NCBI GenBank assembly: GCA_015064415.1
Contig: SVSG01000008.1
Span: 13,306 to 77,305, forward strand
DNA length: 64,000 bases
Origin: Oscillospiraceae bacterium
Lineage (GTDB): Bacteria > Bacillota > Clostridia > Oscillospirales > CAG-272
Direction of reading: 5' to 3'
Part shown: piece after piece, positions 11,662 through 31,277 of the stretch
Layout of the letters: the number at the start of each line of letters is the position of its first letter
Position numbering within the stretch: the stretch's first letter is position 1
The notes under the pieces: generated by a model
What the model saw: the letters and a program-made list of their open reading frames with translations, nothing else
The model's database searches: none
What the model was told of the DNA's origin: nothing
Program-made: the position numbers and the translations under genes

Positions 11662-11678
11662 ATGCGGTGTAGCATGTG

Positions 11679-12357: not shown

Positions 12358-12358
12358 A

Positions 12359-13186: not shown

Positions 13187-13214
13187 TGCACAACAAGTGG
13201 CGTGTTTTAGCATA
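13187..13214 (+). repeat. Second copy of a 28-nt direct repeat (tgcacaacaagtggYgtgttttagcata)
   Basis: 27/28 identical to 11589-11616, in the same orientation. Confidence 0.85.
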
Positions 13215-13286
13215 CCCCTACTGAATAAAGGTGGGTGAACTATTCGATTTTGAGCATCAAAGTATTGGCGTACAATGATGCTTACA

Positions 13287-13829
13287 TTAAACATCCATAG
13301 CGACCGCCTCCTTTAAGTAAATATTGCGTTGATAGCTTGCCGCTTCGAGAGATACTCCGCATTTTTCTACGATCTCCTCAACGGTCATGCCCTCTACGCG
13401 ATCCTTTGGAATCATGAACTCCCCTGCAAAGCATTTTGCCTGCCATTCAGGATCCTTAAAGGAAGGGATTTTCGCATTATCGTATGTTCTTGTCAGGGTA
13501 AATCCGCAGAAGCAAAGCATAAAGAAATGGCCGATCTCATGTGCGATGGTCATGCGATCGCGACCTTCGCCATTGCAAGCACGCTCATAAATCGTTTGCT
13601 TGATGCGAATGTGTCCAGTCGTAATATCGGTTTGCGCATGCTCGTTCCATGGCAGCTCATCATCCTCTACAATCTCATAATCGAAATTGGGGAAGTGAAC
13701 GGTCATGAAATCGAGAAGCGTTACAATAGGGAAATGGAGCTGATCCATGTCACCAAGACTTCGTCGAAAGCTGGTCGCAAGAGCTCGGATGCTTTTGCGA
13801 CCATGGGGTTCTACCATGTACTGACTCAC
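13287..13829 (-). CDS. ImmA/IrrE family metallo-endopeptidase
   Basis: 180 aa. TIAHEIGHFFM (HEXXH) and a downstream EFMIP motif. Immediately downstream of an XRE gene. Confidence 0.75.
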   Translation of the reverse strand: MSQYMVEPHGRKSIRALATSFRRSLGDMDQLHFPIVTLLDFMTVHFPNFDYEIVEDDELPWNEHAQTDITTGHIRIKQTIYERACNGEGRDRMTIAHEIGHFFMLCFCGFTLTRTYDNAKIPSFKDPEWQAKCFAGEFMIPKDRVEGMTVEEIVEKCGVSLEAASYQRNIYLKEAVAMDV

Positions 13830-13835
13830 CGAAAA

Positions 13836-14198
13836 TTAGTCCTCCTTGTTTTTGGAAAGAATGCCGAACAGCTCATCGATCTGTTCAGGGGTAAGGGAAT
13901 CAAATTGACGTGCGAATGACACAGCCAATCTGCGATTAGCAAAGGGCGATGCGGCAATGTCGATTTCAATGACATTGCTGGTTTCCATCACGATTTGCCG
14001 GATGTGGTTGAGTTCAGCTTCAGAAACGTTGTAAAGAGTTGCCAGCTTGTCATACCAAGTCTCTGGGAACTTCTTTTTTCCGTTTTCAACTGCTGAAAGA
14101 AAAGCGGAAGTGACGTTCAGACGGTGAGCCATGTCCTTTAAAATCTCGTTGTTGTGTAATCGTATGTTGGCTAAAATCTGACCCAATTCTGTTTTCAT
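13836..14198 (-). CDS. XRE-family helix-turn-helix transcriptional regulator
   Basis: 120 aa. N-terminal HTH LGQILANIRLHNNEILKDMAHRLNVTSAFLSAVENGKK. Confidence 0.75.
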   Translation of the reverse strand: MKTELGQILANIRLHNNEILKDMAHRLNVTSAFLSAVENGKKKFPETWYDKLATLYNVSEAELNHIRQIVMETSNVIEIDIAASPFANRRLAVSFARQFDSLTPEQIDELFGILSKNKED

Positions 14199-14310: not shown

Positions 14311-14620
14311 ATGCATCTATTAAGGCCACACTTGAAATTGCAAAAATGGTGCACTTTTGAGAAAAGTGACCTTCAAAAAATGCTGAAACCCTTGAAAACA
14401 CCGGGTTTTCGCGTTTTGGCAGATGCATCTAAATTGGCCACACCAGCCAAAACAAAAAAGACGGCAGCTGCCGTCTTTTTTGTTTTTATCCAAGTCGCAG
14501 GCGTGATGGGCGCAGAGCTCTGCAAAGCGGGCAAGATCCGTCTTCTTGAATCCCTACGCAAGCATTTTGAGGGCGGACTTTTCACGATCTTCGTGAAAGT
14601 CCCGCCCTTTTTCGTTTTTC
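14311..14620 (+). repeat. Intergenic repeat family, copy A (full length, two plus-oriented terminator hairpins)
   Basis: About 145 nt aligns with 24845-24985. Hairpins: aaaaaagacggcagctgccgtctttttt (14454-14481) and gggcggacttttcacga/tcgtgaaagtcccgccc (14571-14607) with a T-run. The tail resembles copy C. Confidence 0.75.
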
Positions 14621-17383: not shown

Positions 17384-17401
17384 GTTTTTGTGACGAAAAA
17401 C

Positions 17402-17446
17402 GCCAAAGCCCTTGAAAACACCGGGTTTTTGGGTTTTGGCAAATGC
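17402..17446 (+). repeat. Intergenic repeat family, partial copy
   Basis: gccaaagcccttgaaaacaccgggtttttgggttttggcaaatgca is nearly identical to 24912-24957 and 14382-14427. Confidence 0.7.
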
Positions 17447-17642
17447 AAGCAGCGCTTTGTGAAATTTTGCTCCTTTTTTAAGGGAAATATTGAAAAAATA
17501 TAAAATATATGGTATATTGAAGGTGCCGAATCAAATCCGTATTGCGGCGTATAGCGTGTCAGCTTTGATCACAAGGGCGCCTTAAAAACTTTGGAAGGTC
17601 GGCGCAATTTCTTGATAATAATATGAGGAGGAAAGCGCAGCA

Positions 17643-18436: not shown

Positions 18437-18575
18437 ATACATCTAAAATGGATACATGAGCCAAACAAAAGGGAGCACCTTGGTGCTCCCTTTTGTTTTA
18501 TCCAAGCCGAGGGCTTTTCAATGTTTTTTGAGGCGGGGACTTCACAAAATTTTGTGAAGTCCCCGCCCTTTTTGT
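18437..18575 (+). repeat. Intergenic repeat family, copy C (two terminator hairpins); contains the left copy of the 39-nt direct repeat
   Basis: ccaaacaaaagggagcaccttggtgctcccttttgttt (18461-18498). Second hairpin ggcggggacttcacaaa/tttgtgaagtccccgcc (18532-18567). The linker ttatccaagccg is shared with copy A. Confidence 0.75.
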
Positions 18576-18625: not shown

Positions 18626-19135
18626 TTATTTTGTGGAGCGGTAAAAGTGATAGCAGCGGTCGAAGTCGTGAAAAGAATCTTTTTCAACAAATACACCGCC
18701 GCACTTTTTAGCAAGAGCGATGCCGGCGACATTTTCGCTGTGAACGTGATAAACGAGAAAATCGTTGCGTTCATTTCGAAATGCCTCCTTGATCAAAAGG
18801 CGCAATGCACGGGTGCCGATACCGCGCCGACGGTATTCTTCGCACAATTCAATATGTATTTCCGGGATGGGCGTGTTCGTTTTTGAAAGCGCGACGTAGC
18901 CGATATAGTTTTCGCCATCAAAAAGTCCGAATGCGCGAACGTTATGACGCATACTGATAATCATGTCCGTCATGAGTCGAGAAGCGTCCGAGAATTTCTC
19001 CGACTGCGGGGATTGCTCCAAAGACTCGATAAGCCCCCAAATCGGAGCTTCTCTTTCTTGCGCGTTGCTTCTTTCGTAGTATTCTTCTTCGCTGATATCC
19101 TTCAATATGATGTTGTCGCAGATAATGTACTTCAT
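18626..19135 (-). CDS. GNAT family N-acetyltransferase
   Basis: 169 aa. Acetyl-CoA motif EEYRRRGIGTRALRLLIKEAF. Confidence 0.75.
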   Translation of the reverse strand: MKYIICDNIILKDISEEEYYERSNAQEREAPIWGLIESLEQSPQSEKFSDASRLMTDMIISMRHNVRAFGLFDGENYIGYVALSKTNTPIPEIHIELCEEYRRRGIGTRALRLLIKEAFRNERNDFLVYHVHSENVAGIALAKKCGGVFVEKDSFHDFDRCYHFYRSTK

Positions 19136-19138: not shown

Positions 19139-20131
19139 TTACTCCTTGTTATATATACTGCGGTATTTTTTTGCCGCATAATGGTAGTAGTTGCGCATTG
19201 AGATGCCAAGGCGCTTGGGGGAAAGGATCAGCGCACTGTCGCCAAAGCGCTCAAAGTAATAAAGCGCCTGATTGGCAGAGCATTCGAAGGTGTAGATATC
19301 TCCCTCGATCTTGACGGGAGTGGGGCGATAAAGATAGATCTTTTCAAAAAGCGCTTTGCCTTTTTCGCTCAGCTGCACGCGAATGGGGGTGTTGTCTGTG
19401 GCATACATCGGGTATTGCGCACCGCACGCGATCTGCCTTTCAAACAAAGCTGCGCAATTCTCAGGAATGCTTGCCTTATCGGGGAGGAGGGAGACGGTGC
19501 GGATTTTAGCCAAACGCACCGTTTTGTTTTTTTCTCCGTCATACGAGAGCACGTAATTGAAAAGCTCGTCCTTAGCGGAGGCCACGGCGTAGATGGAGGC
19601 GCCGTTGACGACCGTGCCATTTGGCAAGGAGAGACAGACCTGAACCCCCTTTTTAACAGCGTGTGTCAGCAGCTCGTAATTTTGGCGGTACAGCAGTTTT
19701 TCGCGTTCGTTTTTGCTTTTTTGCGCATAGGAAATAAAGAGCCGACGGTAGTAAGAGGAAAGTGATTCGTCGTGCAAAAGCACGTGCTCGATCATGATGG
19801 TGGCACGCTCGGATTCCTTTGTGGGCTTAAAGGAAAGCGAAACACTCTTGCCATCACTCTGTTGCTTTTCGCGTTTGGCAAGCACTTTTAAAACGGCATC
19901 AAGCGCGCTCCGACGATACACCTCCGGCACGTTTGCAAGCGCCTTTTTGATATCATCGTGCAACGCCTCCTCGCCGGCGGAAAATGCTTCGTGATAATTG
20001 ATGATCAACGTGTTCAAAAAGTCGTTGAGGTTGGGGGAGCGATCCTTTTTTAAAAAGAGAAAGTCCGCACAATCTTTGCGCAAAAGCTCCAGTGTGCTTT
20101 GGGGCAGAGTTATTTTGATTTTTTCCGTCAT
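19139..20131 (-). CDS. WYL-domain transcriptional regulator-like protein (N-terminal RHH-like segment, C-terminal WCX-like)
   Basis: FNYVLSYDGEKNKTVRLAKIRTVSLL resembles the WYL core. FERFGDSALILSPKRLGISMRNYY resembles the C-terminal extension. GAGGTG lies 6 nt upstream of the ATG at 20131. Followed 3 nt later by the GNAT gene. Confidence 0.55.
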   Translation of the reverse strand: MTEKIKITLPQSTLELLRKDCADFLFLKKDRSPNLNDFLNTLIINYHEAFSAGEEALHDDIKKALANVPEVYRRSALDAVLKVLAKREKQQSDGKSVSLSFKPTKESERATIMIEHVLLHDESLSSYYRRLFISYAQKSKNEREKLLYRQNYELLTHAVKKGVQVCLSLPNGTVVNGASIYAVASAKDELFNYVLSYDGEKNKTVRLAKIRTVSLLPDKASIPENCAALFERQIACGAQYPMYATDNTPIRVQLSEKGKALFEKIYLYRPTPVKIEGDIYTFECSANQALYYFERFGDSALILSPKRLGISMRNYYHYAAKKYRSIYNKE

Positions 20132-20249
20132 ATTTATCACCTCATTTATAATAGTACCCGAAAAGGGGTCATTTGTCAATATAAAAATCCAATAAAATCC
20201 AATAAATTATAGCATTTTTAGGGGTCAAAAAAATATTGTAAACTGCCAA

Positions 20250-20278
20250 TTGAAAACCACAGATTTTTGTCATATAAT
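20250..20278 (+). promoter_or_regulatory. Sigma-A promoter for the plus-strand module
   Basis: TTGAAA (20250-20255), 17 nt, TATAAT (20273-20278). Divergent from the WYL gene. Confidence 0.65.
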
Positions 20279-20310
20279 GGTGGCAAGAACAAAACACGGA
20301 GGTGAAAGAC

Positions 20311-20796
20311 ATGAAGGTTTGTCACATGGAAGCAATGAAAGAAGTGCGGCTGTTGGAGGAAAAAAAGGAGATGCTGCTTGAGCGCGAGTGTGAGCGTTTT
20401 CGCGTATCTTATAAGGAAGGCGAGCGTAAGCTGGAAAACGGCTACTCCTACCGAGGCACAAGAGACGATGTGGCCGCGTTGGATGCTCGCATTCGCGAGA
20501 TCAAGGGTGCGCTTGCCGCAGCAAACTGCGCCTGCCGCTTGGAAGCGTTTGACGTGACCATCGGCGAGGGGCTGGTGATGCTGGCACAGTGGAACAGGGA
20601 ATACGAGCGGCTTTGTATGCTGGCGTCTTGCCAGCAGCTTTCTCGGCGCATTACACAAAATGGTATTTTGGAATACACGGAATGTCAGTATGACGTAGAG
20701 GAGGTCATCCGCGAGCGCGATGCACTTAAGCAACGCATCGGCATGCTGCAGATCGCGATTGATCGCACAAATCTGCTTTCGTTTATTGAGATCTGA
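20311..20796 (+). CDS. Coiled-coil hypothetical protein (161 aa), possibly DIP1984/septicolysin-like
   Basis: GGAGGTG lies 6 nt upstream of the ATG at 20311. Heptad-rich sequence. C-terminus DVEEVIRERDALKQRIGMLQIAIDRTNL is reminiscent of the DIP1984 family (unverified). Confidence 0.6.
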   Translation: MKVCHMEAMKEVRLLEEKKEMLLERECERFRVSYKEGERKLENGYSYRGTRDDVAALDARIREIKGALAAANCACRLEAFDVTIGEGLVMLAQWNREYERLCMLASCQQLSRRITQNGILEYTECQYDVEEVIRERDALKQRIGMLQIAIDRTNLLSFIEI

Positions 20797-21181
20797 TGTA
20801 TTTTCCAGACCGCCGTTCATAGGCTGATCCTTCGGGGTTTGGCACACATATTTTTGTGGATTGTTACGGTGACCGATTTATGGTTCAGGTTAATGCTTAT
20901 CGGTTGTGTTTTTGTAGAGACGGTTTATCGCTTATGAAGGTACAAAATTACAAGGTAGCAGGCATTTGCTAAAGGATGTTGGGCGGTCAAAAGCTTTCGC
21001 GGGGGAAGCAACGGGTCATAACTCGCAGCTCGGTTCCCATTTTCTTTGTTGAATTGGACGGAATATATTTCCTACCAAGCACAGCCGCGTGTTGGGATCA
21101 AATGAACGCGCTGGGCGGTTTGTAGCATCTCAAAGAAAGTGAAGCGTTCAGCCGAGGTTTTGAAAAAAGGAGGATGGTAGA

Positions 21182-22546
21182 ATGAGAAATTTTGACAGAA
21201 TTGCCGGTTATGAGGCGGAGAAAAAGGAATTAGAGGTGCTTGTTGATATTTTCAACAACCGTGCGAAATATCGAGAAAAGGGTGCAAGCTTACCTAAGGG
21301 CATCATCTTTTGCGGAGAGAAGGGTGTGGGGAAGCAATTGTTTGCGACGGTTCTTGCCGAAAGATGTGCATTGAAAATCAGCGAGATCGATGTTGAAAAG
21401 GAGATGATGGACTATCGCGTCGCTCGTGAGATCCGCAAGGCGTTTACCAAGGCAGCACGCAATCATTATCCCACGATGATCCTGCTCAAGGGGCTGGACA
21501 AGCTGTTCGGCGAGGACGTGCCGGAATGCGGCAAGGAACAGCTGGAAACGGTGCGCTCGCAGCTTACCAATTTGCTGGACGGAATGGATACCATAGACAA
21601 TATCGTATTTGTGGCGACCTGCGAGCATGAAAGCACATTGCCCGATTGCTTGAGGCGCGCGGGGCGCTTTGATCGAAAGATCACGCTGGAGCTACCTGAC
21701 TATCCCTCTCGTGTGGAGATCTTACGGATGTATATGGATAGAACGTCCTGTCGCTTTGCACTGGATGCCGGGGCATTGGCAAAGCTTGGAGCGGGATTTT
21801 CCGGTGGTATGTTGGAGGCACTGGTCAGGGAATGTGCCCTACGTTCCGATCCAAGCAATTTTGTAAGTGAGGAGTGCTTAAAGGGGGCGGTGGTAGCGTT
21901 GGAGGAGGGCGAGGAGCTTGACGGCATGAATAACGTATACCAAACCGTGCAGGCGGTACGCAACATCGGCGCCTTTCTCGCCTCGCTTTCCTATCACAAA
22001 GGGGACTATCATTTGTCCTTGAACGAATGCACCGTATGCAACGGTTTCCTGGATGCAGTCATACACAAACTCAAACACAGTTACGATGACGACGATTATT
22101 ATTGCGACGATGACGATGACGAATACCCTTCTAAGGAACGCAAAGCAACGGCGTTTTCCAAAAACGATCTGCAGGCGGCGGTCACGTCGCTATTGGCCGG
22201 CTATGCCGCAGAGGAGTTGATCCTGCATAAGGTGCATCACACCATTGCAGAGAATATGCGTGTTCTCCGTTTCATTTTCCTGAAAATGGTGGAGTGCGGC
22301 ATGCTTGGACTGGGGCATTTGTATGTGGAGGTCCCCTACGATCGCTCGTCATGCTCTCAAGCGTGCTTGGAACGCTTGGAAAAGGAGTTTAATGACTTGA
22401 TTGCGGAATGTTATAAAAAGGCAACGGAGATCGTTCGCAAAAACGAGGAGCTTATCAAAAAACTCACGCCTGTGCTGTTGAAGCACCTTTTCCTGGAAAA
22501 GAGCGAGTGTGACCGCGTACTCTTCGAGCTTGGTGGCATCGCTTAA
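21182..22546 (+). CDS. FtsH-like AAA+ protein without TM segments, with degenerate Walker A/B and no HEXXH (probable pseudo-enzyme)
   Basis: AGGAGG RBS. Colinear with the FtsH AAA module (LPKGIIFCGEKGVGKQ, MILLKGLDKL, LRRAGRFDRKITLELPD, GFSGGMLEALVRECAL) and the M41-like tail (AGYAAEELIL). The HEAGH position reads RNIGA. Acidic insert SYDDDDYYCDDDDDEY. Confidence 0.65.
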   Translation: MRNFDRIAGYEAEKKELEVLVDIFNNRAKYREKGASLPKGIIFCGEKGVGKQLFATVLAERCALKISEIDVEKEMMDYRVAREIRKAFTKAARNHYPTMILLKGLDKLFGEDVPECGKEQLETVRSQLTNLLDGMDTIDNIVFVATCEHESTLPDCLRRAGRFDRKITLELPDYPSRVEILRMYMDRTSCRFALDAGALAKLGAGFSGGMLEALVRECALRSDPSNFVSEECLKGAVVALEEGEELDGMNNVYQTVQAVRNIGAFLASLSYHKGDYHLSLNECTVCNGFLDAVIHKLKHSYDDDDYYCDDDDDEYPSKERKATAFSKNDLQAAVTSLLAGYAAEELILHKVHHTIAENMRVLRFIFLKMVECGMLGLGHLYVEVPYDRSSCSQACLERLEKEFNDLIAECYKKATEIVRKNEELIKKLTPVLLKHLFLEKSECDRVLFELGGIA

Positions 22547-22611
22547 ACATAAAAAGAGCGCCCTCGTTCTTCGACAGGCGCTCTTTACAAAGTGAGGAAG
22601 CTTGTGTTATA

Positions 22612-24150
22612 ATGAACTCAAGAAACGAGAGGGAGGTGCACGATTTGCAGAAGGATTTTTATTTGGATCTCTCGGATGAAGTGATCGCGATATGCGAGGA
22701 GCTGCTGCGCCGCGCTAAGGAGTGGCACTTGCCGATACGGCGCAAAGAGAATTTTGTCGGCTTTGGCAAAATACACGGCTTTTATATGTTCTGGATCTCT
22801 CGCAAGGATGAGGGGGACTATTTTAAGGCGCGCTCGGAGTATGCATGTGAGCGGTTGCAGGAAATTGTACACTATCCGCTAATTGCAGAAAACAAGGATG
22901 CTATCCTTGATGCGGCACAGGCGATCTATCGGGAGTATTTGGCACACGGGAGTGAGTTTCCCCGGAAGTCGCGCATCAAAACCCCTGACCCGTTGAAGGG
23001 GGAAGGAGCCCAAAATTCTTGGCATGGGGTGGCGCGGCATGCCGTATCGGAATGGAGAGGGGCGACAGAAGAGCGCGGGCAAGCCGCTTCGGGCACTGAG
23101 CTTTTGCAGACAGCTCAGGTGTTCTTGCGCAATGCGGATGCTCTGCTTCTGCTTTTGAGCAATGAAATACGATCTGCGCGTACCAAAGACGTTTGGAAAA
23201 GGTACGTGCTGACCGATGCCGAGACGCTTGAGCAGATCAGCAAAGATTATAGCTTGACGCGTGAGCGTATCAGGCAGCTTGTAAAAAGAGGCAACAGAGA
23301 GATCGCCGATCTTTTTGTGCGGTATTGTACGTACGAAAAGCGCGAGATCTTTGATACATACATTTTGCCAATGGCGCAAGCGTTGGAGAATGCTTCCTGC
23401 GATTTACCTGTGTTTTTGCAAAGCGCCTTTGCCGATTGGGGAGAGCGCAAGAAAAAAGTGGTCCTGCAGCTTTTATTTGGTGAGGAAAACGGCGCGGCGC
23501 TTGTGGAAGCGTGCGAGAAATATCAAAAAAAGGTAACGGAGCCCGCCAAAAAGCAAAACGGGATCGCGGAAAAGCTTGCCCGCTTACAGACGATGATCCG
23601 ATATCCCACTGCGGTGTATGCGGATACCGGTGAGAAAATAGGCACGTTTGTCATGGAAAAAGAGTATACACATATATCGAAATTCCGCAAGCTGCTGGAG
23701 AAAATGCAAGGGTATTTGCACTTTGTGCAAAACCCCAATATTGTGTATTATTCCACTGCAAAAACCGATCACCGTCCCAGTTTTTTACTGGAGTTTGAAA
23801 ACGGCAGACGTGTGCTTGTACTGGTGCTGCCGACGCTCAACATGGCTTTTTCTTATAACCTAAAGCGTTTTTGGGCGTTGCGGGATTTTTGCAAAAGGAG
23901 GGGGTACGGGTATCTGATCGTTGACGATCGGGAGCAAGCTTTGTGGGATCTGGAGTGCTTACCTGTAGATCCCGCCTTAAAAAGTGCCTTGGATGCAATT
24001 TTATTATCAAAGGGAAGGATCCTTTGGGACGATATCTTTGAGATGAAGAAAACGCACGATCTGACAAATAGTCTGATTGTTGCCTACGTTTTACAAAGCA
24101 AGCTGCATTTTGTAATGGATCCTTATTTTTGCATTTGTTCTTTTACGTGA
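22612..24150 (+). CDS. Hypothetical protein with an internal sigma-70 region-4-like HTH
   Basis: 512 aa. DAETLEQISKDYSLTRERIRQLVKRGNREI matches the region 4.2 pattern (TLEEIG..TRERIRQIE). The C-terminal part (HRPSFLLEFENGRRVLVLVLP...YGYLIVDD) is vaguely nuclease-fold-like. Confidence 0.55.
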   Translation: MNSRNEREVHDLQKDFYLDLSDEVIAICEELLRRAKEWHLPIRRKENFVGFGKIHGFYMFWISRKDEGDYFKARSEYACERLQEIVHYPLIAENKDAILDAAQAIYREYLAHGSEFPRKSRIKTPDPLKGEGAQNSWHGVARHAVSEWRGATEERGQAASGTELLQTAQVFLRNADALLLLLSNEIRSARTKDVWKRYVLTDAETLEQISKDYSLTRERIRQLVKRGNREIADLFVRYCTYEKREIFDTYILPMAQALENASCDLPVFLQSAFADWGERKKKVVLQLLFGEENGAALVEACEKYQKKVTEPAKKQNGIAEKLARLQTMIRYPTAVYADTGEKIGTFVMEKEYTHISKFRKLLEKMQGYLHFVQNPNIVYYSTAKTDHRPSFLLEFENGRRVLVLVLPTLNMAFSYNLKRFWALRDFCKRRGYGYLIVDDREQALWDLECLPVDPALKSALDAILLSKGRILWDDIFEMKKTHDLTNSLIVAYVLQSKLHFVMDPYFCICSFT

Positions 24151-24174
24151 GAAGAGAGTTGAGAGAGCGGTGTT

Positions 24175-24438
24175 ATGACGAGTAAGACAAAAATTGATTG
24201 GAAAAACCTTGGAAAAAGAGAGTGGACCAGATTTTATACCGTTTCTAACGTCGACGAGGAACGCGTTGACCAAATCGAAATAGATGTACAGAGAGGGGAG
24301 TATCGCCTGTATACGGATTGCGATATAAGCATCACGGATGGCGTTGACCGACACGGTGAGGATATTATTTCCTATTATGTTCCACGCACCCTTTTTGATA
24401 TCATTGCCGAGGGCGTAGCGGAAAATTTGCGGTTTTGA
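24175..24438 (+). CDS. Small hypothetical protein (87 aa)
   Basis: ORF in operon context with a weak RBS. Acidic. Confidence 0.4.
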   Translation: MTSKTKIDWKNLGKREWTRFYTVSNVDEERVDQIEIDVQRGEYRLYTDCDISITDGVDRHGEDIISYYVPRTLFDIIAEGVAENLRF

Positions 24439-24464
24439 ACTTTTGCTTATAAAGGAGAAACAAC

Positions 24465-24815
24465 ATGGCGAAGTATTTGATGATCAAGCTTGTGTTTGGT
24501 GAGGAGATTCACCCCGACGTATACAGCATGATGCAGGATGAATATGAAAAGGCGAGCTGCGATATAAGTGACTACGCCGCATCGCTTGGTGCGAAGATGT
24601 TGATTGAAGATACCGTTAACGTATATGGAGTGGGGCACTCTTACGCTGTGGTAGAGCACAATTTTCCGATGACGAAAGAGAAAAAAGAGAGCTTGGTGGA
24701 GATCATATCTCGCTTTTTTGTAGACGGAGAGATCGAAGAAAGGGTGCTGAAAACTTTTAACGTTCTGTCTGCTGTGCGTTTTTTACAGACCGGGGGAGAG
24801 CTTTTTGAAGTATGA
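24465..24815 (+). CDS. Small hypothetical protein (116 aa)
   Basis: AAGGAG lies 7 nt upstream of the ATG. Acidic. Confidence 0.5.
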   Translation: MAKYLMIKLVFGEEIHPDVYSMMQDEYEKASCDISDYAASLGAKMLIEDTVNVYGVGHSYAVVEHNFPMTKEKKESLVEIISRFFVDGEIEERVLKTFNVLSAVRFLQTGGELFEV

Positions 24816-24843: not shown

Positions 24844-25030
24844 GTGCATCTATGAAGGTCACGCTTGAAATCGCAAAATGTGGATTTTCGATGAAATGCA
24901 GTGATAAAAAAGCTGAAATCCTTGAAAACACCGGGTTTTTGGGTTTTGGCAGATGTATCTAAATTGGCCACACCGCCAAAAGAAAAGGGAGTGCTTCGGC
25001 ACTCCCTTTTCTTTCGTTCAAGCCGTGGCT
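24844..25030 (+). repeat. Intergenic repeat family, copy B (separates the two island modules)
   Basis: Aligns with copy A over about 145 nt. Terminator hairpin aaaagggagtgc-ttcg-gcactccctttt (24983-25010). Confidence 0.75.
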
Positions 25031-25124
25031 CTGTATCGCATTGCACGGGGCGTGTGCTTCGGCCTTTCTTGCCTTGAAAAGAAAAAGCCCGCGCTCGAAA
25101 AAAGTCTGATTTTATCGCAAACTC

Positions 25125-25153
25125 TTGGCAAAAACGCATTAATTTGTTATAAT
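25125..25153 (+). promoter_or_regulatory. Sigma-A promoter for the polymerase-like gene
   Basis: TTGGCA (25125-25130), 17 nt, TATAAT (25148-25153). Confidence 0.6.
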
Positions 25154-25195
25154 AAGATAAAAAGGTTAAAAGGAACCAAGGACGGAGGTGCGCGG

Positions 25196-28171
25196 ATGCA
25201 AGCTGTGAGCTATACGCCGATCAGGATACTGTCTATAGACGGCAGCGATATTTACCGTGCTATGCATCGCGTGGATGGTAATCTGGGGTTGACGCTGAAG
25301 GATACGCGCGGCAAGCTGGACACAAGCCGCTTCAGAGGGTTTCTCGACGCCAGTCTGGATACCGATCAGATCAAGAAGATCTATGCAAAGCACAAGGAGC
25401 TGCCCGGCAGCTTCCGTGTGTGCAAGGATTACACCACCTCCGTTGTGAACGTGTCCTTTGATTTTACGGTCAAGGAATTTTACAACAAAGGCAAGCGTCT
25501 TTTCGTGAGGGACGGCTACGATGCCCGTTGGGATATGCTGCACGACCACGTTCTTTTTGTTGAGGAGGACGGTGTAAAAAAGCTGATCGCCGTCGAGGTC
25601 GCGGACGATGAGAAGGAGCTGGACGAGCGTTACGTTCCCGTTTGCGAGCCCGTAGCGGAAGAGTTGCTTGCGGGATATTTTGCATACGATCCCGAAAGAC
25701 GGGCATATTACGTCAGGCGCCTTGGTTTTTTCGGCAGGACGGGAAGGGAAACCCTTATTCCGACGCTGGTCACAAAAAAGGAGATCCGTGCATGGCTTTA
25801 CGAAAACGGGTTTGATATAGACGGCGTGCATTACGTCAGATACAAGCGCAGTGCGGGCAGCAGCCGCGAGGGGCATTGCCTTTTTATTGCCGAGCCGTTA
25901 TATGAAGATATGATGGCGTGGAGCAGCTGCGGACTTGATCCGCAAGCGCTCACCGATCAGGCATCCTGGCAGGCGTACATATCCCTGACGCTCAGCAGTA
26001 TCGAAAAAAAGATCCATATCCCAAGGCAATCCATCATGATCATAAAGGATCAGGTCAGCACCTTTCGTGACACAGTGATCCGCGTGGGCGAATGTGGTGT
26101 GGGGCTTTCGGCATCCAGGGAAGAGGTCGAGATCAAAAACGTTGTCTGGGACGGCGAAGCGTTGCTTGACCGCAGTGTGTTTGAGGAAAACGGGTATGCG
26201 GATAAGGGGATGATGCTTCTTCGCAATCGTTTTTTCAAGACCTGCGCGTTCAATACCAATCTGCAGGAATGGTTTGCCGATCACGGCATCACGAAGCCGA
26301 GTCAGCTCGGCGGCTATTGCTCAAAAAGGACGCGCAGTATCGGGGATATTAAGCTTGTGATCACCGAAAGCAGCTTGAAGTATCTGAAATTCAAGCCCGC
26401 GGATGTGACGCTTTCGGACTGGTTTGAAAAATGGCTCGATCACATTTTCGTGGACAAGGAAAGTGCGCTTTTCGGCGTGGTGAAGACCGATAAAGCGATA
26501 GGCCCGATGCAAAACAGAATGGTCAAAACGAATTACCAGCTTCTCAACACCCTTGCGCTTTCCGAGCGTGATGCACATGCACTGCTTGCGCAATCCTTTG
26601 ATTTTTTGCACGCGATGCAAAAGGATCCCACGTACGTGCGCTATCATGCCAATCTGTTTGTAACGGACGGTTATGATGAGGAGGACACGTCCACCACAGA
26701 GAATTATCGCCAGAAGCTTATTTCGGATATCATGCGTCGCAGTGACGATTTTGAGGGCACTGTGTTCTATCGCAATTATCGTGCGGAGCTGTGCCGCAGC
26801 TTTAAGGAGCGATTGAAGCACGGCAGGGTGCTGATTGACGGTGGATACCACACGTTGCTTGGGAACGGTATGGAATTTTTGCATGCCGTGATCGACAAGA
26901 ATTATACGGTGGATGAGCCACTGGCGCTTGGCGACGGTGAGATATACGCGCCGAGATTTGCCGACGGCGAAGAGCTTTTGTGCGAGCGAAGCCCCCACAT
27001 CACGATGGGGAATTTATTGGTTGCCAAAAACAAATACGTGCCGGAGATCGAAAAATATTTCAACCTCGGTGCCGCGCGCTCTATCGTTTGTGTGAACGCG
27101 ATCCAAAGCAATTTGCAGCAGCGCCTCAACGGCTGCGATTATGATTCCGACTCGATGCTGATCACGAACAATGCGATCCTGCTTCGTACCGCAAAGGAAA
27201 ATTACGATAACTTCCCGGTGCCGTATTGCGACGTGCTCCCCGGTGGCAAGGTCACCTATACGACGGCGCCGAAGGATCTTTCGGAGCTTGACGTCAAGAT
27301 ATCCGAGAACAAGATCGGCGAGATCGTGAATCTTTCCCAGTTCCTCAACAGCTTGTACTGGGACAAGCTCTCGCGCGGTGAGCGGGAGGGGCTTACGGAG
27401 CTTTACGCCGATATTTGCAAGCTTGCGGTGCTTTCCGGCATGGAGATCGATAAAGCGAAACGTCTGTATCGGGTCTCAGCACTTGCCGTGCTGGCTGATC
27501 TTCGCATTCACAAGGATGCCTATAAAGAAGAACACAACGGCAAAATTCCTGCCTTTTTTGCATATATTACCGATAGCGAGCTTACGGATCAGACAAGCCC
27601 GCAGGCAAAGCTGGATACGGCAATGTCTTTCGTGTATGATACGGTCGACGAGGACAAGGGGCGCGCCCCCAGAAGCAAAAACGTGTATTACACAGAGCTG
27701 TTCGATCTTGATTTTGAAAGGGGAGATCCCACGGGGGCGTTTGCCAAGCGCCGCGATGCTATTTTGAGCTTTGTGGAAGAAGCGCAAAACAAGATCCGTC
27801 ATTTGAACTTTATCAGCAGTAAAAAGAACCGCTCGGAAAAACTGCTTGCCATAGAGGAGGCGGAGGCGCTGTTTGAGGAATGCAAAAAGAAGATCGAAAA
27901 AACCGCTGACGATCACGTGTACGCGCTGCTTTTGCGCGAGCTGGATAAGGGCGAGGAGAGCAAAAAAAGGGTCACGAGCTTCCACGCGCTGCTGTTTGCG
28001 GTCATGTGCTATGCAAACGAGGGGTATCTGCTCAAAAAACTGAAAAAGCCCACGTGCGAAATGCTGGATCTGTATCCCATAGCCGAGGGGGCTTGGTCTG
28101 ACGATCTGCCCGACAAGGTCATTGTATACGGGCATCCCTTCGTGAGGGCAAGAAGACAAAAAAGCAAATAA
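25196..28171 (+). CDS. Eukaryote-type RdRP / YonO-like two-barrel (DPBB) nucleotide polymerase homolog (991 aa)
   Basis: GGAGGTG lies 5 nt upstream of the ATG at 25196. Motifs: ERSPHITMGN (26984-27013); about 40 aa later LNGCDYDSDSMLI (DYDSD at 27137-27151); upstream RSAGSSREGHCLFI, VWDGEALLDRS and MLLRNRFFKTCAF, in the same order as the RDR/QDE-1 family motifs. Confidence 0.65.
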   Translation: MQAVSYTPIRILSIDGSDIYRAMHRVDGNLGLTLKDTRGKLDTSRFRGFLDASLDTDQIKKIYAKHKELPGSFRVCKDYTTSVVNVSFDFTVKEFYNKGKRLFVRDGYDARWDMLHDHVLFVEEDGVKKLIAVEVADDEKELDERYVPVCEPVAEELLAGYFAYDPERRAYYVRRLGFFGRTGRETLIPTLVTKKEIRAWLYENGFDIDGVHYVRYKRSAGSSREGHCLFIAEPLYEDMMAWSSCGLDPQALTDQASWQAYISLTLSSIEKKIHIPRQSIMIIKDQVSTFRDTVIRVGECGVGLSASREEVEIKNVVWDGEALLDRSVFEENGYADKGMMLLRNRFFKTCAFNTNLQEWFADHGITKPSQLGGYCSKRTRSIGDIKLVITESSLKYLKFKPADVTLSDWFEKWLDHIFVDKESALFGVVKTDKAIGPMQNRMVKTNYQLLNTLALSERDAHALLAQSFDFLHAMQKDPTYVRYHANLFVTDGYDEEDTSTTENYRQKLISDIMRRSDDFEGTVFYRNYRAELCRSFKERLKHGRVLIDGGYHTLLGNGMEFLHAVIDKNYTVDEPLALGDGEIYAPRFADGEELLCERSPHITMGNLLVAKNKYVPEIEKYFNLGAARSIVCVNAIQSNLQQRLNGCDYDSDSMLITNNAILLRTAKENYDNFPVPYCDVLPGGKVTYTTAPKDLSELDVKISENKIGEIVNLSQFLNSLYWDKLSRGEREGLTELYADICKLAVLSGMEIDKAKRLYRVSALAVLADLRIHKDAYKEEHNGKIPAFFAYITDSELTDQTSPQAKLDTAMSFVYDTVDEDKGRAPRSKNVYYTELFDLDFERGDPTGAFAKRRDAILSFVEEAQNKIRHLNFISSKKNRSEKLLAIEEAEALFEECKKKIEKTADDHVYALLLRELDKGEESKKRVTSFHALLFAVMCYANEGYLLKKLKKPTCEMLDLYPIAEGAWSDDLPDKVIVYGHPFVRARRQKSK

Positions 28172-28174
28172 AAA

Positions 28175-28215
28175 ACGGCATCTCTTTGCTGCGGCAGAGA
28201 GATGCCGTTTTTTTG
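28175..28215 (+). terminator. Intrinsic terminator after the polymerase-like gene
   Basis: acggcatctct...agagatgccgt plus a T7 run. Confidence 0.7.
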
Positions 28216-28428
28216 CAAAAAAATGACGCAAAAAACGGAATTTTGGAAGTTTTCGCCGATTTGAAAGCCGAGATCCCCTCGAAAACAGGGGATTTCGAGT
28301 TTTTTGGGAATTTGGTCAAATGGAACCCCTTTTGAAAAAGGGGATGGAGAATCAACCGCTATTATAAAAAACAGTAATGGAAGTTCTTTCTCCGATTTTT
28401 CCAAAATTTAAGAAATGAGGATTGACAC

Positions 28429-28731
28429 ATGAACAAAAAGGTGTATTGCGTCACGAACGAAAAGGGCGTGCAAAGCTTTTACCTGGAGGCGTGCGGCGAA
28501 ACGCATTATCTGTTTTCTCAGAATTTCAGACGCGGCGTGAAGGAGTACTTTGGGGCGGGCGTTCATCTGGATGCCGCTATCGATTATTCGCGCGCCGGTC
28601 ATGATACGGCGGTATTGCGCACGATGCGTAAATTGCCTGCTTTCATCAAATACATAGAAAAGCAATATGATATTGCGGTGCTTCGTCGAACGGCGAAACG
28701 AAACGCCACGTGGAAAAGAAGCGTCGCATGA
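28429..28731 (+). CDS. Small basic hypothetical protein (100 aa)
   Basis: GAGGA RBS. No recognisable family. Confidence 0.5.
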   Translation: MNKKVYCVTNEKGVQSFYLEACGETHYLFSQNFRRGVKEYFGAGVHLDAAIDYSRAGHDTAVLRTMRKLPAFIKYIEKQYDIAVLRRTAKRNATWKRSVA

Positions 28732-28746
28732 TAAATATATAAATAT

Positions 28747-28781
28747 AAAACAGGGGTGGATCACGGTTCGCCCCTGTTTTC
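28747..28781 (+). terminator. Hairpin plus T-run
   Basis: aaaacaggggtg...cgcccctgtttt. Confidence 0.55.
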
Positions 28782-28799
28782 CATTTTTCAACAGAGGAG

Positions 28800-29465
28800 G
28801 TGTTTGATATAGGTCTGTATTACACAAAGGGAATGGAACACATGGAACGAAACGAGGTGGAGGAAGCTCTCACAACGCTTATTGCGGGACTCGAGCGCGG
28901 GGAGAGCAAATGCGCCTTCGGCATTTTGCACGCGGTCACACATTTTTGCTCTTACACCGTGAGCGAGGAGGAGGGGATCTCGATTTTCCGCGCGTCCTAT
29001 CCCCAAATAAAGTCTCTCGCGCAAGGCGGGGACACCGAGGCAATGGTCATGGTTGCCGAGGGGATACGGCTCGGCTTTGTGGAAGAGGAGGACGAGCCGT
29101 ATTTGTACTGGCTGACGAAGGCCGCCGCGCTTGGCGATCTGCACGCGGATGCCATCCTGCGGGAATTGGAGGAGTCGGACGATCCTTTTGGGTTGCCTGA
29201 CCTGTCCGCATATCTGATAGGAGAGGGGGGAGACGAAACGGATCTGCTTTTGCTCGCGCAAGACGCGGAGGATATCGACCTTCCGGAAGAGCACGTACTG
29301 CTGGAGGAGCCGGACTTTGTGCTTCGTGAGCAGTTCGGGATCGACGAATATCTGAGAAGAAAGAAGGTGCGTTATGAGCTGATGAAATGTCAAGACAGCG
29401 CCGTGCTTCCCGAGGAGCACGAAGGTAAGGACATGGAATTTACGCAAGAGGAGGATGAGGAATGA
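28800..29465 (+). CDS. Sel1-like repeat protein with a long acidic C-terminal tail
   Basis: AQGGDTEAMVMVAEGIRLGF...YWLTKAAALGDLHA fits the Sel1 pattern. The tail is rich in E/D. Start uncertain (GTG 28800 abuts the AGGAGG; ATG at 28833). The stop overlaps the next ATG (ATGA). Confidence 0.55.
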   Translation: MFDIGLYYTKGMEHMERNEVEEALTTLIAGLERGESKCAFGILHAVTHFCSYTVSEEEGISIFRASYPQIKSLAQGGDTEAMVMVAEGIRLGFVEEEDEPYLYWLTKAAALGDLHADAILRELEESDDPFGLPDLSAYLIGEGGDETDLLLLAQDAEDIDLPEEHVLLEEPDFVLREQFGIDEYLRRKKVRYELMKCQDSAVLPEEHEGKDMEFTQEEDEE

Positions 29466-30529
29466 TACCGAGAAATGCAAAGAAAGCAAAATACGAAAGA
29501 CTGTACGCCAACGGACTCATGTACCTTGCCAAGGGGGAGCCGCTGCTCGCGCAGAAGTATCTCAACGAGGCCGTGATCCAGTTGAAGGATTACATTATGT
29601 ATCTTTTCGACGATGAACGCGCGGAGGCCAAGGAGTGGTTCCTTGAGCTGTGCGGACACATCAAGGAGATCGGAAAGTATTACACCACGGTCAAGGCGCA
29701 AAACCAAACGGAAGAGGAGCCGCTTGAAGCGGCATCGGGCACGGAATCCTTTGCCTTTGCCAAGGGGGAGATTCCGTGTGTTTCCTTTGATGACGTTGTG
29801 GGCCTGGAGGACGTCAAGGAGCAGATCTACGATATGGTGATCTATCCGCGCCGGTACCGAGAGCTCTATGACCGTTTTCGCAAGAAGATGGGCGGCGGCA
29901 TTCTTTTGTACGGCCCTCCCGGCAACGGTAAGACCATGATCGCCAAGGCGATCGCCCACGAGACAGAGTCCACGTTTTACCCCATCAAGTTTTCGGATCT
30001 CGGCAGTAAGTGGTTCGGTGAGACGGAGGGGCGAATCAAGAGTCTGTTCGAGCAGGCGCGCCGTGAGGAGAGCGCGGTGATTTTCTTCGACGAGATCGAT
30101 GCGATCGCGACCGCGAGAAGTGACTCCTGTGCCATGGACCGCGTTGTGGCGGAGCTGCTGACGCAGATCGACGGCATCAACAGATCCGAGGGCAATATCA
30201 CCGTGCTTGCGGCCACGAACAGACCCGAGAAGCTTGACCCGGCGATCCTTCGCCCGGGGCGCTTTGACGAGAAGATCCATATCCCCTTGCCCGACGCCAA
30301 GGCGCGTGCCGCCATGTTTGAGAAGCGCCTTTGCGGGGTGCCTTCCACCGTTGCCGATTTCACGGAGTTTGCCGCGCTTTGCGACGGATTTTCCGGCGCG
30401 GAGATCGCACACGTGTGCGAGAAAGCGAAGCAGCGCGTGATCCGCAGTATCATCTCGGGCGCGCCCAACGAGACCTGTATCACGCCCTTGGATATCCGTG
30501 AAGCGATCGCACACGTGCGCGCTTCCTGA
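29462..30529 (+). CDS. AAA+ ATPase of the Vps4/katanin/spastin (meiotic) clade with a helical N-terminal domain
   Basis: Intact Walker A GPPGNGKT and Walker B IFFDEID. SKWFGETEGRIKSLF (SKW.GESEK-type motif). ATNRPEKLDPAILRPGRFD. Confidence 0.8.
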   Translation: MIPRNAKKAKYERLYANGLMYLAKGEPLLAQKYLNEAVIQLKDYIMYLFDDERAEAKEWFLELCGHIKEIGKYYTTVKAQNQTEEEPLEAASGTESFAFAKGEIPCVSFDDVVGLEDVKEQIYDMVIYPRRYRELYDRFRKKMGGGILLYGPPGNGKTMIAKAIAHETESTFYPIKFSDLGSKWFGETEGRIKSLFEQARREESAVIFFDEIDAIATARSDSCAMDRVVAELLTQIDGINRSEGNITVLAATNRPEKLDPAILRPGRFDEKIHIPLPDAKARAAMFEKRLCGVPSTVADFTEFAALCDGFSGAEIAHVCEKAKQRVIRSIISGAPNETCITPLDIREAIAHVRAS

Positions 30530-30560
30530 ATACACTATTTCTAAAAAAGGAGATTTTCAA

Positions 30561-31277
30561 ATGGAAGTAATGAACTACAACAATCACAACGCAAACGAGA
30601 TCGCCGCAAACATTCTGCAGGGCGGGGAGGCATTCTGCAGCCCCGAAAGAAAGGGGATGAACCGCGTTGAGCGGATCAAGGACACGGTGGAGCGCTGGTA
30701 TGCGCTTCACCCCGACACCTACAAGGACCCGTATCAGCGCGCCATCATGAAGCATCTTTACACCGCGCTCGCCTACATGGGGGACGGTGAGGCATGCTCT
30801 TTGATGGAAATGCTTGCCTTCCGCGACTTAAGGGCGGCACAAAAGGCGGGCGACGAGCAGGCGATCGCCCGTGCCGAGGAGGAGATCGGATTCTGGCAGA
30901 CTGTGACCTTCCTTGTGATCAGCAAGGAGAAGGAGCCGCGCATCTCTTTGGCCTATCAGCTGCTTTTGGGGCTGGGATGCGAGAAGGACGCCGCGCGCGC
31001 GAGGGAGATCTACGAGCGAGAGAGCTTTGCCAAGTATGAAACGCTGACCGAGCGCGAGCGTGCCAAGCTGCGCGACGCGCGTGACGGCAAGCTGGTATGC
31101 CCGATGCCCGAGTTCAGAGGCCGCCTGATCGATGCCGTGATGGCAGGCGACCGTGAGCGCTACAAGCAGGTGTTTGACGAGGCGGTACGACAGGGTGCCG
31201 AGCGCGAGATCGACTCTGCCTGGTTTCTTCCGCACTATATCGGTGACGTCAAGTACGCGGAGGACACTCGCCCCTGA
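30561..31277 (+). CDS. Helical-repeat hypothetical protein (weak Sel1/TPR-like)
   Basis: AGGAG lies 8 nt upstream of the ATG at 30561. LAYQLLLGLGCEKDAARAREIYE resembles a Sel1 half-repeat. Confidence 0.5.
   Translation: MEVMNYNNHNANEIAANILQGGEAFCSPERKGMNRVERIKDTVERWYALHPDTYKDPYQRAIMKHLYTALAYMGDGEACSLMEMLAFRDLRAAQKAGDEQAIARAEEEIGFWQTVTFLVISKEKEPRISLAYQLLLGLGCEKDAARAREIYERESFAKYETLTERERAKLRDARDGKLVCPMPEFRGRLIDAVMAGDRERYKQVFDEAVRQGAEREIDSAWFLPHYIGDVKYAEDTRP

Follow-up and report, generated by a model that had tools for sequence, protein, structure and literature searches.

A WYL1-like regulator with a conserved putative operator pair and an FtsH-like pseudo-enzyme as partner: a probable autoregulated switch of gut Clostridia

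We analysed a 64,000-nucleotide (nt) stretch of DNA, here called the window, from an Oscillospiraceae bacterium (CAG-272; assembly GCA_015064415.1, contig SVSG01000008.1, positions 13,306–77,305 of the forward strand). Our subject is a gene for a WYL-domain protein and the row of plus-strand genes from which it is transcribed divergently. With moderate confidence, we interpret this locus as an autoregulated switch, in which a regulator resembling the Cas13d helper WYL1 would respond to nucleic acid and act through two phase-locked operators, with an FtsH-like pseudo-enzyme as partner. As far as sequence comparison can tell, the window holds a lineage-specific elaboration of this two-gene unit, which has its place within the WYL-domain regulators.

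A Divergent Gene Pair Conserved among Gut Clostridia

The two genes at the centre of the argument are the following (all positions are those of the window).

19139–20131, minus strand: gene for the WYL1-like regulator, 330 amino acids (aa), recognised by its fold, the PADLOC WYL model and a match to PDB 6oaw
21182–22546, plus strand: gene for the FtsH-like AAA+/M41 protein, 454 aa, matching Pfam AAA and Peptidase_M41

Relatives were collected by scanning species-representative genomes, which gave 64 loci, and three more were fetched by exact protein match; all were compared by tblastn and by clustering of open reading frames (ORFs). Most of the 64 belong to Christensenellales-like gut metagenome-assembled genomes (MAGs), from Scatosoma, Gallimonas, Coproplasma, Limadaptatus and others. 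Of 66 loci centred on a WYL gene, 53 have an AAA/M41 gene next to it and divergent from it; upstream flank is lacking in most of the others. Across the 64 species-level loci, the AAA/M41 gene was the sole conserved neighbour of the regulator gene, and the pair was found in at least 50 species, among housekeeping genes, at a regulator identity of 55–64%.

Every feature reported in a first-pass annotation of the window was found in its place. The six-component unit that the annotation had made of them did not withstand the comparison, in that only the WYL and AAA/M41 genes stay linked across the 64 loci; the genes for the 161-aa and 512-aa proteins also occur unlinked elsewhere, and the 116-aa gene is found in three related loci. 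The other genes of the supposed module thus appear to be recent lineage-specific add-ons, and the comparison shows both the six-component grouping and its tie to a neighbouring polymerase module as what look like accidents of one lineage.

Predicted Architecture of the Regulator

The regulator gene starts with an ATG at 20131, preceded by a GAGGTG ribosome-binding site, and encodes a protein with an isoelectric point (pI) of 9.2. Pfam and NCBIfam recognised no family, and no helix-turn-helix (HTH) family in particular, in the 330-aa sequence, the Pfam WYL model not reaching 0.1. The PADLOC WYL model matched residues 165–329 (9.3e-7), and the sole PDB sequence match was WYL1 (6oaw), which the single sequence matched at 1.5e-4 and a family profile at 1.7e-7.

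An AlphaFold model built with 14 homologues (pLDDT 83.9, pTM 0.76) was submitted to Foldseek. The top match was WYL1 (6oaw) over the full length (E 1.7e-13, TM 0.63; against chain B, TM 0.63 over 381 columns, E 4.8e-13), followed by PafBC, DriD, CapW and BrxR (E 1e-6 to 1e-2) and by Hfq barrels. In the model, the N-terminus is formed by a strand (residues 5–10) with helices 11–23 and 35–67, and by a second strand–helix–helix unit at 96–136 (strand 96–101). An Sm-like WYL β-barrel (~163–219) and a C-terminal, WCX-like α/β domain (~250–327) complete the chain; the WYL-like core and WCX-like tail proposed by the first-pass annotation are borne out by the PADLOC, WYL1 and structural matches.

WYL1 is composed of two ribbon–helix–helix (RHH) motifs, a WYL domain and a C-terminal domain that dimerises, and binds single-stranded RNA (ssRNA) (PMC6547453). 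Because the N-terminal half of the window protein holds two strand–helix–helix units matching these RHH motifs, the protein is, on the evidence of its model, built like WYL1 and not of the BrxR/CapW type to which it had initially been assigned; the WYL fold, the C-terminal extension and the divergent position invoked for that assignment are nonetheless all present. The Foldseek alignment and the order of secondary-structure elements in the model agree on two RHH motifs, a WYL domain and a C-terminal domain as in WYL1. No winged HTH was found at the N-terminus, the full-length structural match being to WYL1 only.

The two proteins resemble each other most closely both in sequence and in structure, from the double RHH through the WYL barrel to the C-terminal domain, and both come from gut Clostridia. 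They differ in that only 17–18% of residues are identical, and in that WYL1 (RspWYL1, 6OAW) belongs to a type VI-D CRISPR-Cas13d system, whereas the window contains neither a CRISPR array nor a Cas13d gene. A Cas13d-sized HEPN protein was likewise missing among the recurrent neighbours of the 64 related loci, none of which was fetched through a Cas link. Moreover, a divergent operon and a conserved pair of DNA operators go with the window family but are unreported for WYL1, which is described as an ssRNA binder disfavouring double-stranded DNA (dsDNA).

The family comprises 451 close homologues of ~330 aa in Clostridia MAGs, and 1345 clusters at 50% identity match the regulator at E ≤ 1e-3, nearly all of them end to end. 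K4, I5 and K6 of the first RHH strand are invariant among the homologues. Relative to L001, a close relative of the window locus, the ratio of nonsynonymous to synonymous substitution rates (dN/dS) of the gene is 0.07.

Predicted Promoters and Operator Pair

The region between the regulator gene and its divergent neighbour contains two promoters and two copies of a short motif.

20250–20278, plus strand: divergent target promoter TTGAAA-17-TATAAT, 11 of 12 consensus matches
20179–20151, minus strand: promoter-like site of the WYL gene, TTGACA-17-TACTAT, with -35 and -10 blocks conserved in an alignment of more than 40 species
20164–20171, minus strand: proximal operator copy TGACCCCT, flanked by the -35 and -10 of the WYL promoter, with its centre near -23.5
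20220–20227, minus strand: distal operator copy TGACCCCT, centre near -61.5 of the divergent promoter

The divergent promoter is the one proposed by the first-pass annotation; the operator centres are computed from inferred transcription start sites. In most species, the WYL–AAA intergenic region measures 165–185 nt, and it can be aligned across more than 40 species. The 179-nt region of the window, although it leads from the regulator gene to the 161-aa gene described below, aligns with the WYL–AAA regions of other species, and this alignment makes its divergent promoter homologous to their AAA/M41 promoter.

Two direct copies of TTTGACCCCTT stand out in the aligned regions, beside both promoters. 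Of 48 distinct regions, 46 contain the core TG[AC][CA]C[CA]C exactly twice on the regulator strand; its background frequency is 0.35 per kb per strand. The proximal copy begins 8–9 nt after the start of the -35 block and ends 8 nt ahead of the -10 block of the regulator promoter (43–45 loci), and the distal copy lies 45–46 nt upstream of the -10 block of the divergent promoter across loci. The linker is the variable part: the copies are 44–45 nt apart in 24 loci, 55–56 nt in 18 (56 nt in the window), and also 77, 88 or 97 nt, so that the spacing changes in steps of ~11 bp, i.e., in whole helical turns. A search for a palindromic operator between 20132 and 20310 had been suggested; the stretch does contain a conserved two-copy motif, but as direct repeats of an asymmetric site.

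The same two copies, 86–87 nt apart, accompany a paralogous subfamily of the regulator that faces the 161-aa gene in other genomes, where the distal copy lies 82–85 nt from the 161-aa start (83 nt in the window). The motif is missing at loci in which the 161-aa gene has no WYL neighbour (L077, L078, L082, L091 and L092). This pattern of presence and absence is the best evidence that the WYL1-like protein reads the motif, and, because the conserved operator pair is linked to the WYL gene, the regulator very probably governs the genes behind the divergent promoter. The ~11-bp steps point to one oligomer placed on both copies. Together with the fixed promoter geometry and the asymmetry of the site, the phase-locked spacing would fit a parallel dimer with one RHH pair per copy; the invariant first RHH strand has its parallel in the invariant operator core.

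The mechanism that we propose on these grounds is as follows. The RHH pair of each protomer would read one asymmetric site TTTGACCCCTT, and a dimer or higher oligomer would occupy both direct copies from one side of the double helix. Binding to the copy between the -35 and -10 of its own promoter would cause autorepression, and binding to the copy near -61.5 would control the target operon, by activation or otherwise. A ligand of the WYL/C-terminal part, most likely a single-stranded nucleic acid, would alter the occupancy. The ancestral target would be the soluble FtsH-like AAA+ protein. An anonymous family of “hypothetical proteins” is in this way turned into a testable regulator with a defined operator, two promoters and predicted targets, and the RHH motifs of the Cas13d helper WYL1 may, by the same token, descend from real DNA-binding units.

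The AAA+/M41 Partner

The 454-aa protein matches Pfam AAA (3.5e-16) and Peptidase_M41 (1.8e-10, profile positions 50–190 only), and its family aligns to the AAA module of FtsH/Cdc48 and to the C-terminal part of Peptidase_M41. A classical-clade AAA+ module is thus followed by an M41 helical domain, as in FtsH, but the protein lacks the transmembrane N-terminus: positions 160–383 of TIGR01241 correspond to residues 3–223, and the score is 135 bits against a cut-off of 600. The HEXXH motif is lacking as well: where it should align, neither the window protein nor any other family member scanned has H[ED]xxH, and the sole HEAGH seen was in a 407-aa paralogue adjoining in L061. The pore-1 aromatic–hydrophobic–Gly motif is missing from the family consensus, which has a shortened stretch from Walker A to Walker B, and a D/Y-rich acidic insert not typical of FtsH is conserved (window residues ~300–315).

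Canonical Walker A, Walker B and sensor-1 residues are kept in 47–48 of 50 family members. In the window protein, Walker A reads GEKGVGKQ, the DE of Walker B is replaced by KG and the sensor-1 N by E; these losses are limited to the window and L001, whereas L074 and L007 are canonical. The gene nevertheless evolves under purifying selection (dN/dS 0.26 relative to L001). Judging from these motifs, “FtsH-like pseudo-enzyme”, the label given by the first-pass annotation, is a fair one.

Catalytically inactive FtsH-like proteins exist, such as plastid FtsHi. Since the AAA/M41 protein is without the means to proteolyse or thread substrates, it is probably a nucleotide-dependent scaffold or switch, a role that seems more plausible than that of an unfoldase. 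A protein devoid of the known catalytic and threading features of FtsH is still kept beside the regulator across gut Christensenellales-like genera.

Several loci depart from the common arrangement. In L015, L060 and L065, a ~200-aa protein with an HEMRH motif is encoded downstream of the protease-dead AAA/M41 gene and could be a separate metallopeptidase partner. In L020, L023, L030 and L033, the AAA/M41 gene is replaced by genes for a protein with the domain of the 87-aa protein (p87 domain, see below) and for a ~330-aa protein with a long D/E/Y-rich tail. In the most distant members of the scan, L057–L059 (“Bacilli” MAGs, 45% identity), the regulator gene faces a gene for a 724-aa protein with no Pfam match in place of the AAA/M41 gene.

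An Inserted Cassette with a Conserved RNA Hairpin

In the window, a cassette stands between the divergent promoter and the AAA/M41 gene.

20311–20796, plus strand: gene for the 161-aa protein (“CC161”), of a DUF6847/DIP1984-like family
20797–21181, plus strand: spacer of 385 nt, with no long ORF in any frame
20993–21031, plus strand: conserved RNA hairpin, stem 20999–21003/21022–21026, loop GGAAGCAACGGGTCATAA

The 161-aa protein has 108 homologues, nearly all of ~161 aa, and the mean column identity of their alignment is 64%. The model DIP1984_fam matches 10 of 15 family members (best 6.6e-7) and a few homologues carry PF20935, but the window protein scores 16 bits against DUF6847/DIP1984, below the curated cut-off of 70. 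The protein is a distant relative of DUF6847/DIP1984 and not a member. The gene is present as first annotated, but the “coiled-coil protein” label has to be corrected: the product belongs to a conserved DUF6847/DIP1984-related family and is no generic coiled coil. A literature search on DIP1984 or DUF6847 found no paper.

The 161-aa gene accompanies the WYL–AAA pair only in the window, L001, L074 and L007. Elsewhere (L075, L083–L090 and L093) it faces the full-length regulator paralogue mentioned above, 33–35% identical to the regulator of the window. In the alignment of more than 40 species, the cassette, made of the 161-aa ORF and its 3′ region, is seen to be inserted between the ancestral promoter and ribosome-binding site of the ATPase gene and the ATPase start codon. 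The insertion brought along the 3′ region of the 161-aa gene, which explains the 385-nt spacer, correctly described as ORF-free at the outset. Its first ~235 nt correspond to the conserved 3′ non-coding region of 161-aa genes; the rest is lineage-specific and ends in the ribosome-binding site of the AAA gene. We also considered a decayed gene as the origin of the spacer and rejected it: stop codons abound in the translations of all six frames, and blastx found no similarity to any neighbouring ORF.

Every copy of the 161-aa gene is followed by ~230–320 nt that contain no called gene, show conserved blocks and end in a hairpin. The stem has 5–9 bp and varies by locus (13 distinct stems among 16 loci), and the loop of 13–18 nt is conserved, as either GAAGYAAYGGGTTATA or GAGGTTCGGTTTGA. 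On eight in-register sequences, pairing was found in 82.8% of cells, against 58.5% in shuffles, and none of 500 shuffles reached the observed value. All eight pairs change on both sides, i.e., they covary, and controls slid along the alignment score less than half; these covariation statistics rest on the eight sequences. A covariance model (R1; window 37 bits, E 1e-5) found matches only downstream of 161-aa genes in 1.15 Mb, and it missed the second loop type, GAGGTTCGGTTTGA.

Rfam, searched at E up to 1 over 12–34 kb, gave no match in the spacer, and the fold of the single spacer sequence was not unusually stable (z -0.06). RNAalifold on four close spacers showed negligible covariation, the signal arising only once distant 161-aa loci were added. 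The hairpin attached to the DUF6847-like gene would represent a new RNA element.

In most other loci, the hairpin is followed by a T-run and would act as an intrinsic terminator, though one whose conserved loop is unusually large. The T-run has been lost in the lineage of the window, where a conserved GGTTCCC block is able to pair with the 5′ half of the loop. In the mechanism that we propose, a second target of the regulator family, the DUF6847-like gene with its 3′ hairpin, would have been inserted ahead of the ATPase gene in this lineage; because the hairpin lost its T-run, read-through would be expected into the ATPase gene, whose product is ATPase-dead, and then into the 512-aa, 87-aa and 116-aa genes.

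From the 161-aa gene through the spacer to the ATPase gene (20311–22546), synonymous divergence (dS) between the window and L001 is 0.03–0.09, and the two loci encode an identical 161-aa protein; the WYL and 116-aa genes on either side reach 0.37–0.46. This mosaic suggests a recent recombination or exchange of the middle segment between lineages. Contigs from two bovine gut metatranscriptomes are identical to the window over 20351–20650, within the 161-aa gene; they are a handful, too thin a sample for operon mapping.

Accessory Genes of the Window Lineage

The remaining features of the block are listed below.

18626–19135, minus strand: gene for a GNAT acetyltransferase (Pfam Acetyltransf_1, 1.8e-11)
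22612–24150, plus strand: gene for the 512-aa protein, with a sigma-70 region-4.2-like HTH
24175–24438, plus strand: gene for an acidic 87-aa protein, with a ~65-aa domain recurring near WYL genes
24465–24815, plus strand: gene for an acidic 116-aa protein, known from the window, L001 and L074
24979–25014, plus strand: G+C-rich hairpin inside an intergenic repeat, at the right edge of the block common to the window and L001

All ORFs of the block are intact, and good ribosome-binding sites precede all seven ORFs of the region. Beyond the spacer, the plus-strand genes are separated by 65, 24 and 26 nt, and no convincing terminator was found between them ahead of the hairpin at 24979–25014, which is likely to mark the end of the transcription unit.

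The GNAT gene, whose start codon lies 3 nt past the stop codon of the WYL gene as first described, had been taken for a co-transcribed companion of the regulator. It proved not to be a conserved partner: besides the window, only L074 has it, the two GNAT proteins being 43% identical as compared to 89% for the regulator, and it is fragmented in L001 and missing from the other loci. It is lineage-specific and lies outside the conserved system.

The 512-aa protein does contain the sigma region-4 HTH previously noted (residues ~198–229, TLxxIxxxYxxTRERIRQ): the Pfam sigma-70 region 4 matches at 6.8e-5, below the gathering score, and a family profile matches region 4.2 of SigA at 1.9e-4. Sigma-70 regions 2 and 3 were not detected by Pfam, NCBIfam or the family profile. 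The family profile and the weak fold matches of an AlphaFold model (pLDDT 86.9) suggest an N-terminal α+β part, the region-4.2-like HTH, a helical middle, a TnsA/Hjc-like C-terminal domain and a small helical/strand unit. Foldseek matches of this model to TnsA, Hjc, Bax1, sigma region 4 and YjbR are weak (E above 0.1) and serve as hints only; the acidic and lysine positions of PD-(D/E)xK nucleases are not conserved in the family. The family is rare (25 homologues), and its gene follows the AAA gene in six loci and stands alone among housekeeping genes elsewhere; the protein is accessory rather than core.

At 22584–22613, a further strong promoter-like site (TTTACA-18-TATAAT, extended TG) overlaps the start annotated for the 512-aa ORF; in the public annotation, the gene starts 11 codons downstream and the protein has 501 aa.

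The two small proteins are acidic, as had been noted, with pI values of 4.67 (87 aa) and 4.70 (116 aa). The ~65-aa domain of the former recurs in proteins of 86–233 aa encoded beside WYL genes in ten loci, in some of which the p87-domain protein replaces the ATPase and is accompanied by a 330-aa acidic-tailed protein; no relative of the domain was found in Pfam or the PDB. L074 lacks the 87-aa gene. The 116-aa gene, confined to the window, L001 and L074, has a dN/dS of 0.20 relative to L001.

Linkage to RtcB and Possible Physiological Role

A gene for the RNA ligase RtcB lies directly after the 161-aa cassette in L075, L080 and L084, and within 1–4 kb of the WYL–AAA pair in L035, L037, L040 and L048; in L040 it follows the ATPase gene by ~50 nt. 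RtcB is therefore near in 7 of ~65 distinct loci, which are not independent of one another; chance would place a single-copy gene there in a fraction of a percent of cases, a far lower share. In two of these loci (L035, 6373–7842; L040, 7930–9399), a 489-aa protein with DUF2828 and DUF7788 and a DxSxS vWA-type motif is encoded codirectionally with the AAA/M41 gene and RtcB. The DUF2828 family has been compared with Ro60/TROVE, which serves as a lead only; a PDB sequence match to Ro60 was looked for and none was found.

Because both regulator subfamilies adjoin RtcB, WYL1 binds ssRNA, and PafBC, DriD and CapW (whose structure entries are among our Foldseek matches) respond to single-stranded DNA (ssDNA), a switch responding to nucleic-acid damage, leaning to RNA damage, is the best-supported role for the locus, although we propose it tentatively and would not be surprised to see it replaced.

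Comparison with known systems is instructive in this respect. PafBC and DriD, ssDNA-triggered activators of DNA-damage responses, resemble the window protein in having a WYL domain and a C-terminal extension (Foldseek E 1e-5 to 1e-6); the upstream position of the distal operator is compatible with activation, and the protein would be, like them, a ligand-sensing regulator of a stress regulon. They differ in having winged HTHs, other operators and DNA-repair targets, whereas here the DNA-binding part would be RHH-like and the targets a pseudo-FtsH and a DUF6847-like protein, with RtcB in relatives. In the RtcR–RtcBA RNA-repair operon, RtcR is a CARF-domain activator that senses damaged tRNA (PMC7790460), and CARF and WYL have been described together as sensor domains (PMC4012209). 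The parallel lies in a presumed ligand-sensing regulator placed divergently from, or beside, rtcB in several relatives; the differences are another sensor domain, the lack of a sigma-54 or AAA+ activator module and of RtcA, and, in the window, the lack of rtcB itself. The RtcB link offers a candidate answer to how RNA repair might be controlled in Clostridia without RtcR.

A broader proposal, which we put forward as a possibility less likely to be right than wrong, is that WYL1-like proteins are widespread, unrecognised transcription factors that set a double RHH on a direct-repeat operator. The WYL/C-terminal domains of those in gut Clostridia would detect RNA that is damaged or single-stranded, and the regulators would then switch on a small regulon for repair and remodelling. 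This regulon would consist of RtcB, the DUF2828 protein, the pseudo-FtsH as a scaffold and a DUF6847-like protein whose terminator hairpin is regulated. WYL1-like proteins would constitute a WYL-based counterpart of the CARF-based RtcR, and the Cas13d helper WYL1 would have been co-opted from their ranks.

Several facts weigh against our interpretation of the locus. The relatives are MAGs throughout, and adjoining loci are not phylogenetically independent; rtcB is missing from the 64-kb window and lies near the pair in only ~11% of loci. The target promoter of the window is close to consensus and may need no activator, and transcript support amounts to the few metatranscriptome contigs over the 161-aa gene. 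The genes beside the pair vary by species, as they do in defence loci. Finally, WYL1, the only characterised relative, is reported to favour ssRNA over dsDNA and to act on Cas13d rather than as a transcription factor (PMC6547453).

Alternative Explanations

The variability of the neighbouring genes is one reason to think of an inducible anti-phage or abortive-infection island, in which, as long as neither infection nor DNA damage occurs, a BrxR/CapW-like WYL repressor would silence a module made up of the AAA+ protein, the nuclease-like 512-aa protein and the small proteins. WYL regulators are commonly encoded divergently from defence operons, and two such repressors, BrxR (of BREX) and CapW (of CBASS), are among the Foldseek matches (E 1e-3 to 1e-2); both share the WYL/WCX fold and the divergent arrangement and have an operator in the promoter region, comparable to the putative one here. 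The AAA+ protein weakly matches PADLOC IetA (1.8e-12), the 161-aa protein touches the PADLOC candidate PDC-S15 at 0.013, and the variable genes include those for p87-domain proteins, a small HExxH protein and the 512-aa protein with its TnsA-like fold, in a region of lower G+C with a phage-related polymerase module nearby. However, the N-terminal winged HTH, the palindromic operator and the recognised defence operon of BrxR and CapW all lack a counterpart here. No system-specific model of PADLOC-DB 2.0 was matched, only the generic WYL, weak IetA/TRIP13 AAA+ and PDC-S15 ones, and NCBIfam IteA scored 47 bits against a cut-off of 510. A competent effector is not evident, the protease, pore-loop, ATPase (in the window) and nuclease motifs all being missing; the pair sits among housekeeping genes in its at least 50 species, and the RtcB linkage points to repair. 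Neither the regulator nor the 161-aa protein turned up in 2.9 million viral contigs, in a pattern-based scan able to find close relatives only. On balance, we regard a defence island as unlikely. Less probable still is that the module of the window is a decaying remnant, with a dead ATPase and passenger genes of no joint function. Walker A, Walker B and sensor-1 are indeed lost only in the window and L001, the GNAT gene is broken in L001 and the 87-aa gene missing in L074, but the operator pair and both promoters are intact, as is every ORF, and the dN/dS values (0.26 for the ATPase, 0.07 for the WYL protein and 0.20 for the 116-aa protein), along with the unchanged 161-aa protein, speak for maintenance.

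The affinity of WYL1 for ssRNA and its stimulation of Cas13d (PMC6547453) raise another prospect, namely that the regulator is an RNA-binding accessory factor working with neighbour proteins or with the spacer RNA, and that the DNA motif belongs to some other regulator; a conserved structured RNA does adjoin the gene in the window and in the loci of the paralogous regulator. Most WYL–AAA loci have no such RNA element, though, and Cas13d is absent from the window. The motif, for its part, is present at every WYL1-like locus and missing from 161-aa loci without a WYL1-like gene, and one copy keeps a fixed position inside the regulator's own promoter, all of which makes this explanation very improbable. 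It is scarcely credible, lastly, that the WYL module and the polymerase module (24953–30529) form one system on a mobile element, acting together as the first-pass annotation had supposed. Only a single repeat copy separates them, both contain classical-clade AAA+ proteins, and the polymerase-like protein has phage homologues. Yet L001 and L074, the closest relatives, carry the WYL module without the polymerase module, which is also missing from all of the 64 other loci; relative to L001, positions 24974–33737 are an 8.8-kb insertion that holds it, and no operator copy occurs near it. On this comparison, the polymerase module is an unrelated insertion. The autoregulated WYL1-like switch is accordingly the reading that we retain.

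Surroundings of the Locus

The polymerase module begins with a large polymerase-like protein containing DYDSD (annotated from 24953, the true start being probably near 25196), and continues with a very acidic protein of 221 aa (pI 4.2) and then an AAA+ ATPase resembling Cdc48/IetA. Among phage protein families, phrog_8308 matches the polymerase-like protein at 3.5e-88 and an “RNA-dependent RNA polymerase” PHROG matches it at 1.7e-5; the PDB gave no sequence match. Contigs of human faecal phages encode full-length homologues with 44% identity, and weaker homologues are present in Enterocloster phages.

Intergenic repeats are located at 14376–14456, 17396–17447 and 24906–24986, with hairpins at 18463–18498, 24979–25014 and 31942–31977. 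Each repeat is associated with a G+C-rich hairpin resembling a bidirectional terminator; the repeats lie at the borders of the blocks in which the window departs from L001, which itself contains more copies.

At 11268–14198, a tRNA-Leu(aag) gene is followed by a DUF4417 gene and then by an HTH_31 and M78 (ImmA/IrrE-like) pair, and between 12 and 30 kb the G+C content falls from ~0.55 to 0.43–0.51. The 11268–14198 segment looks like the edge of an integrated element or variable region. Further downstream, a tandem repeat at 38063–39685 (period 201 nt, eight copies, 83% identity) lies within an ORF of 1358 aa (35872–39948), which probably encodes a repetitive surface protein.

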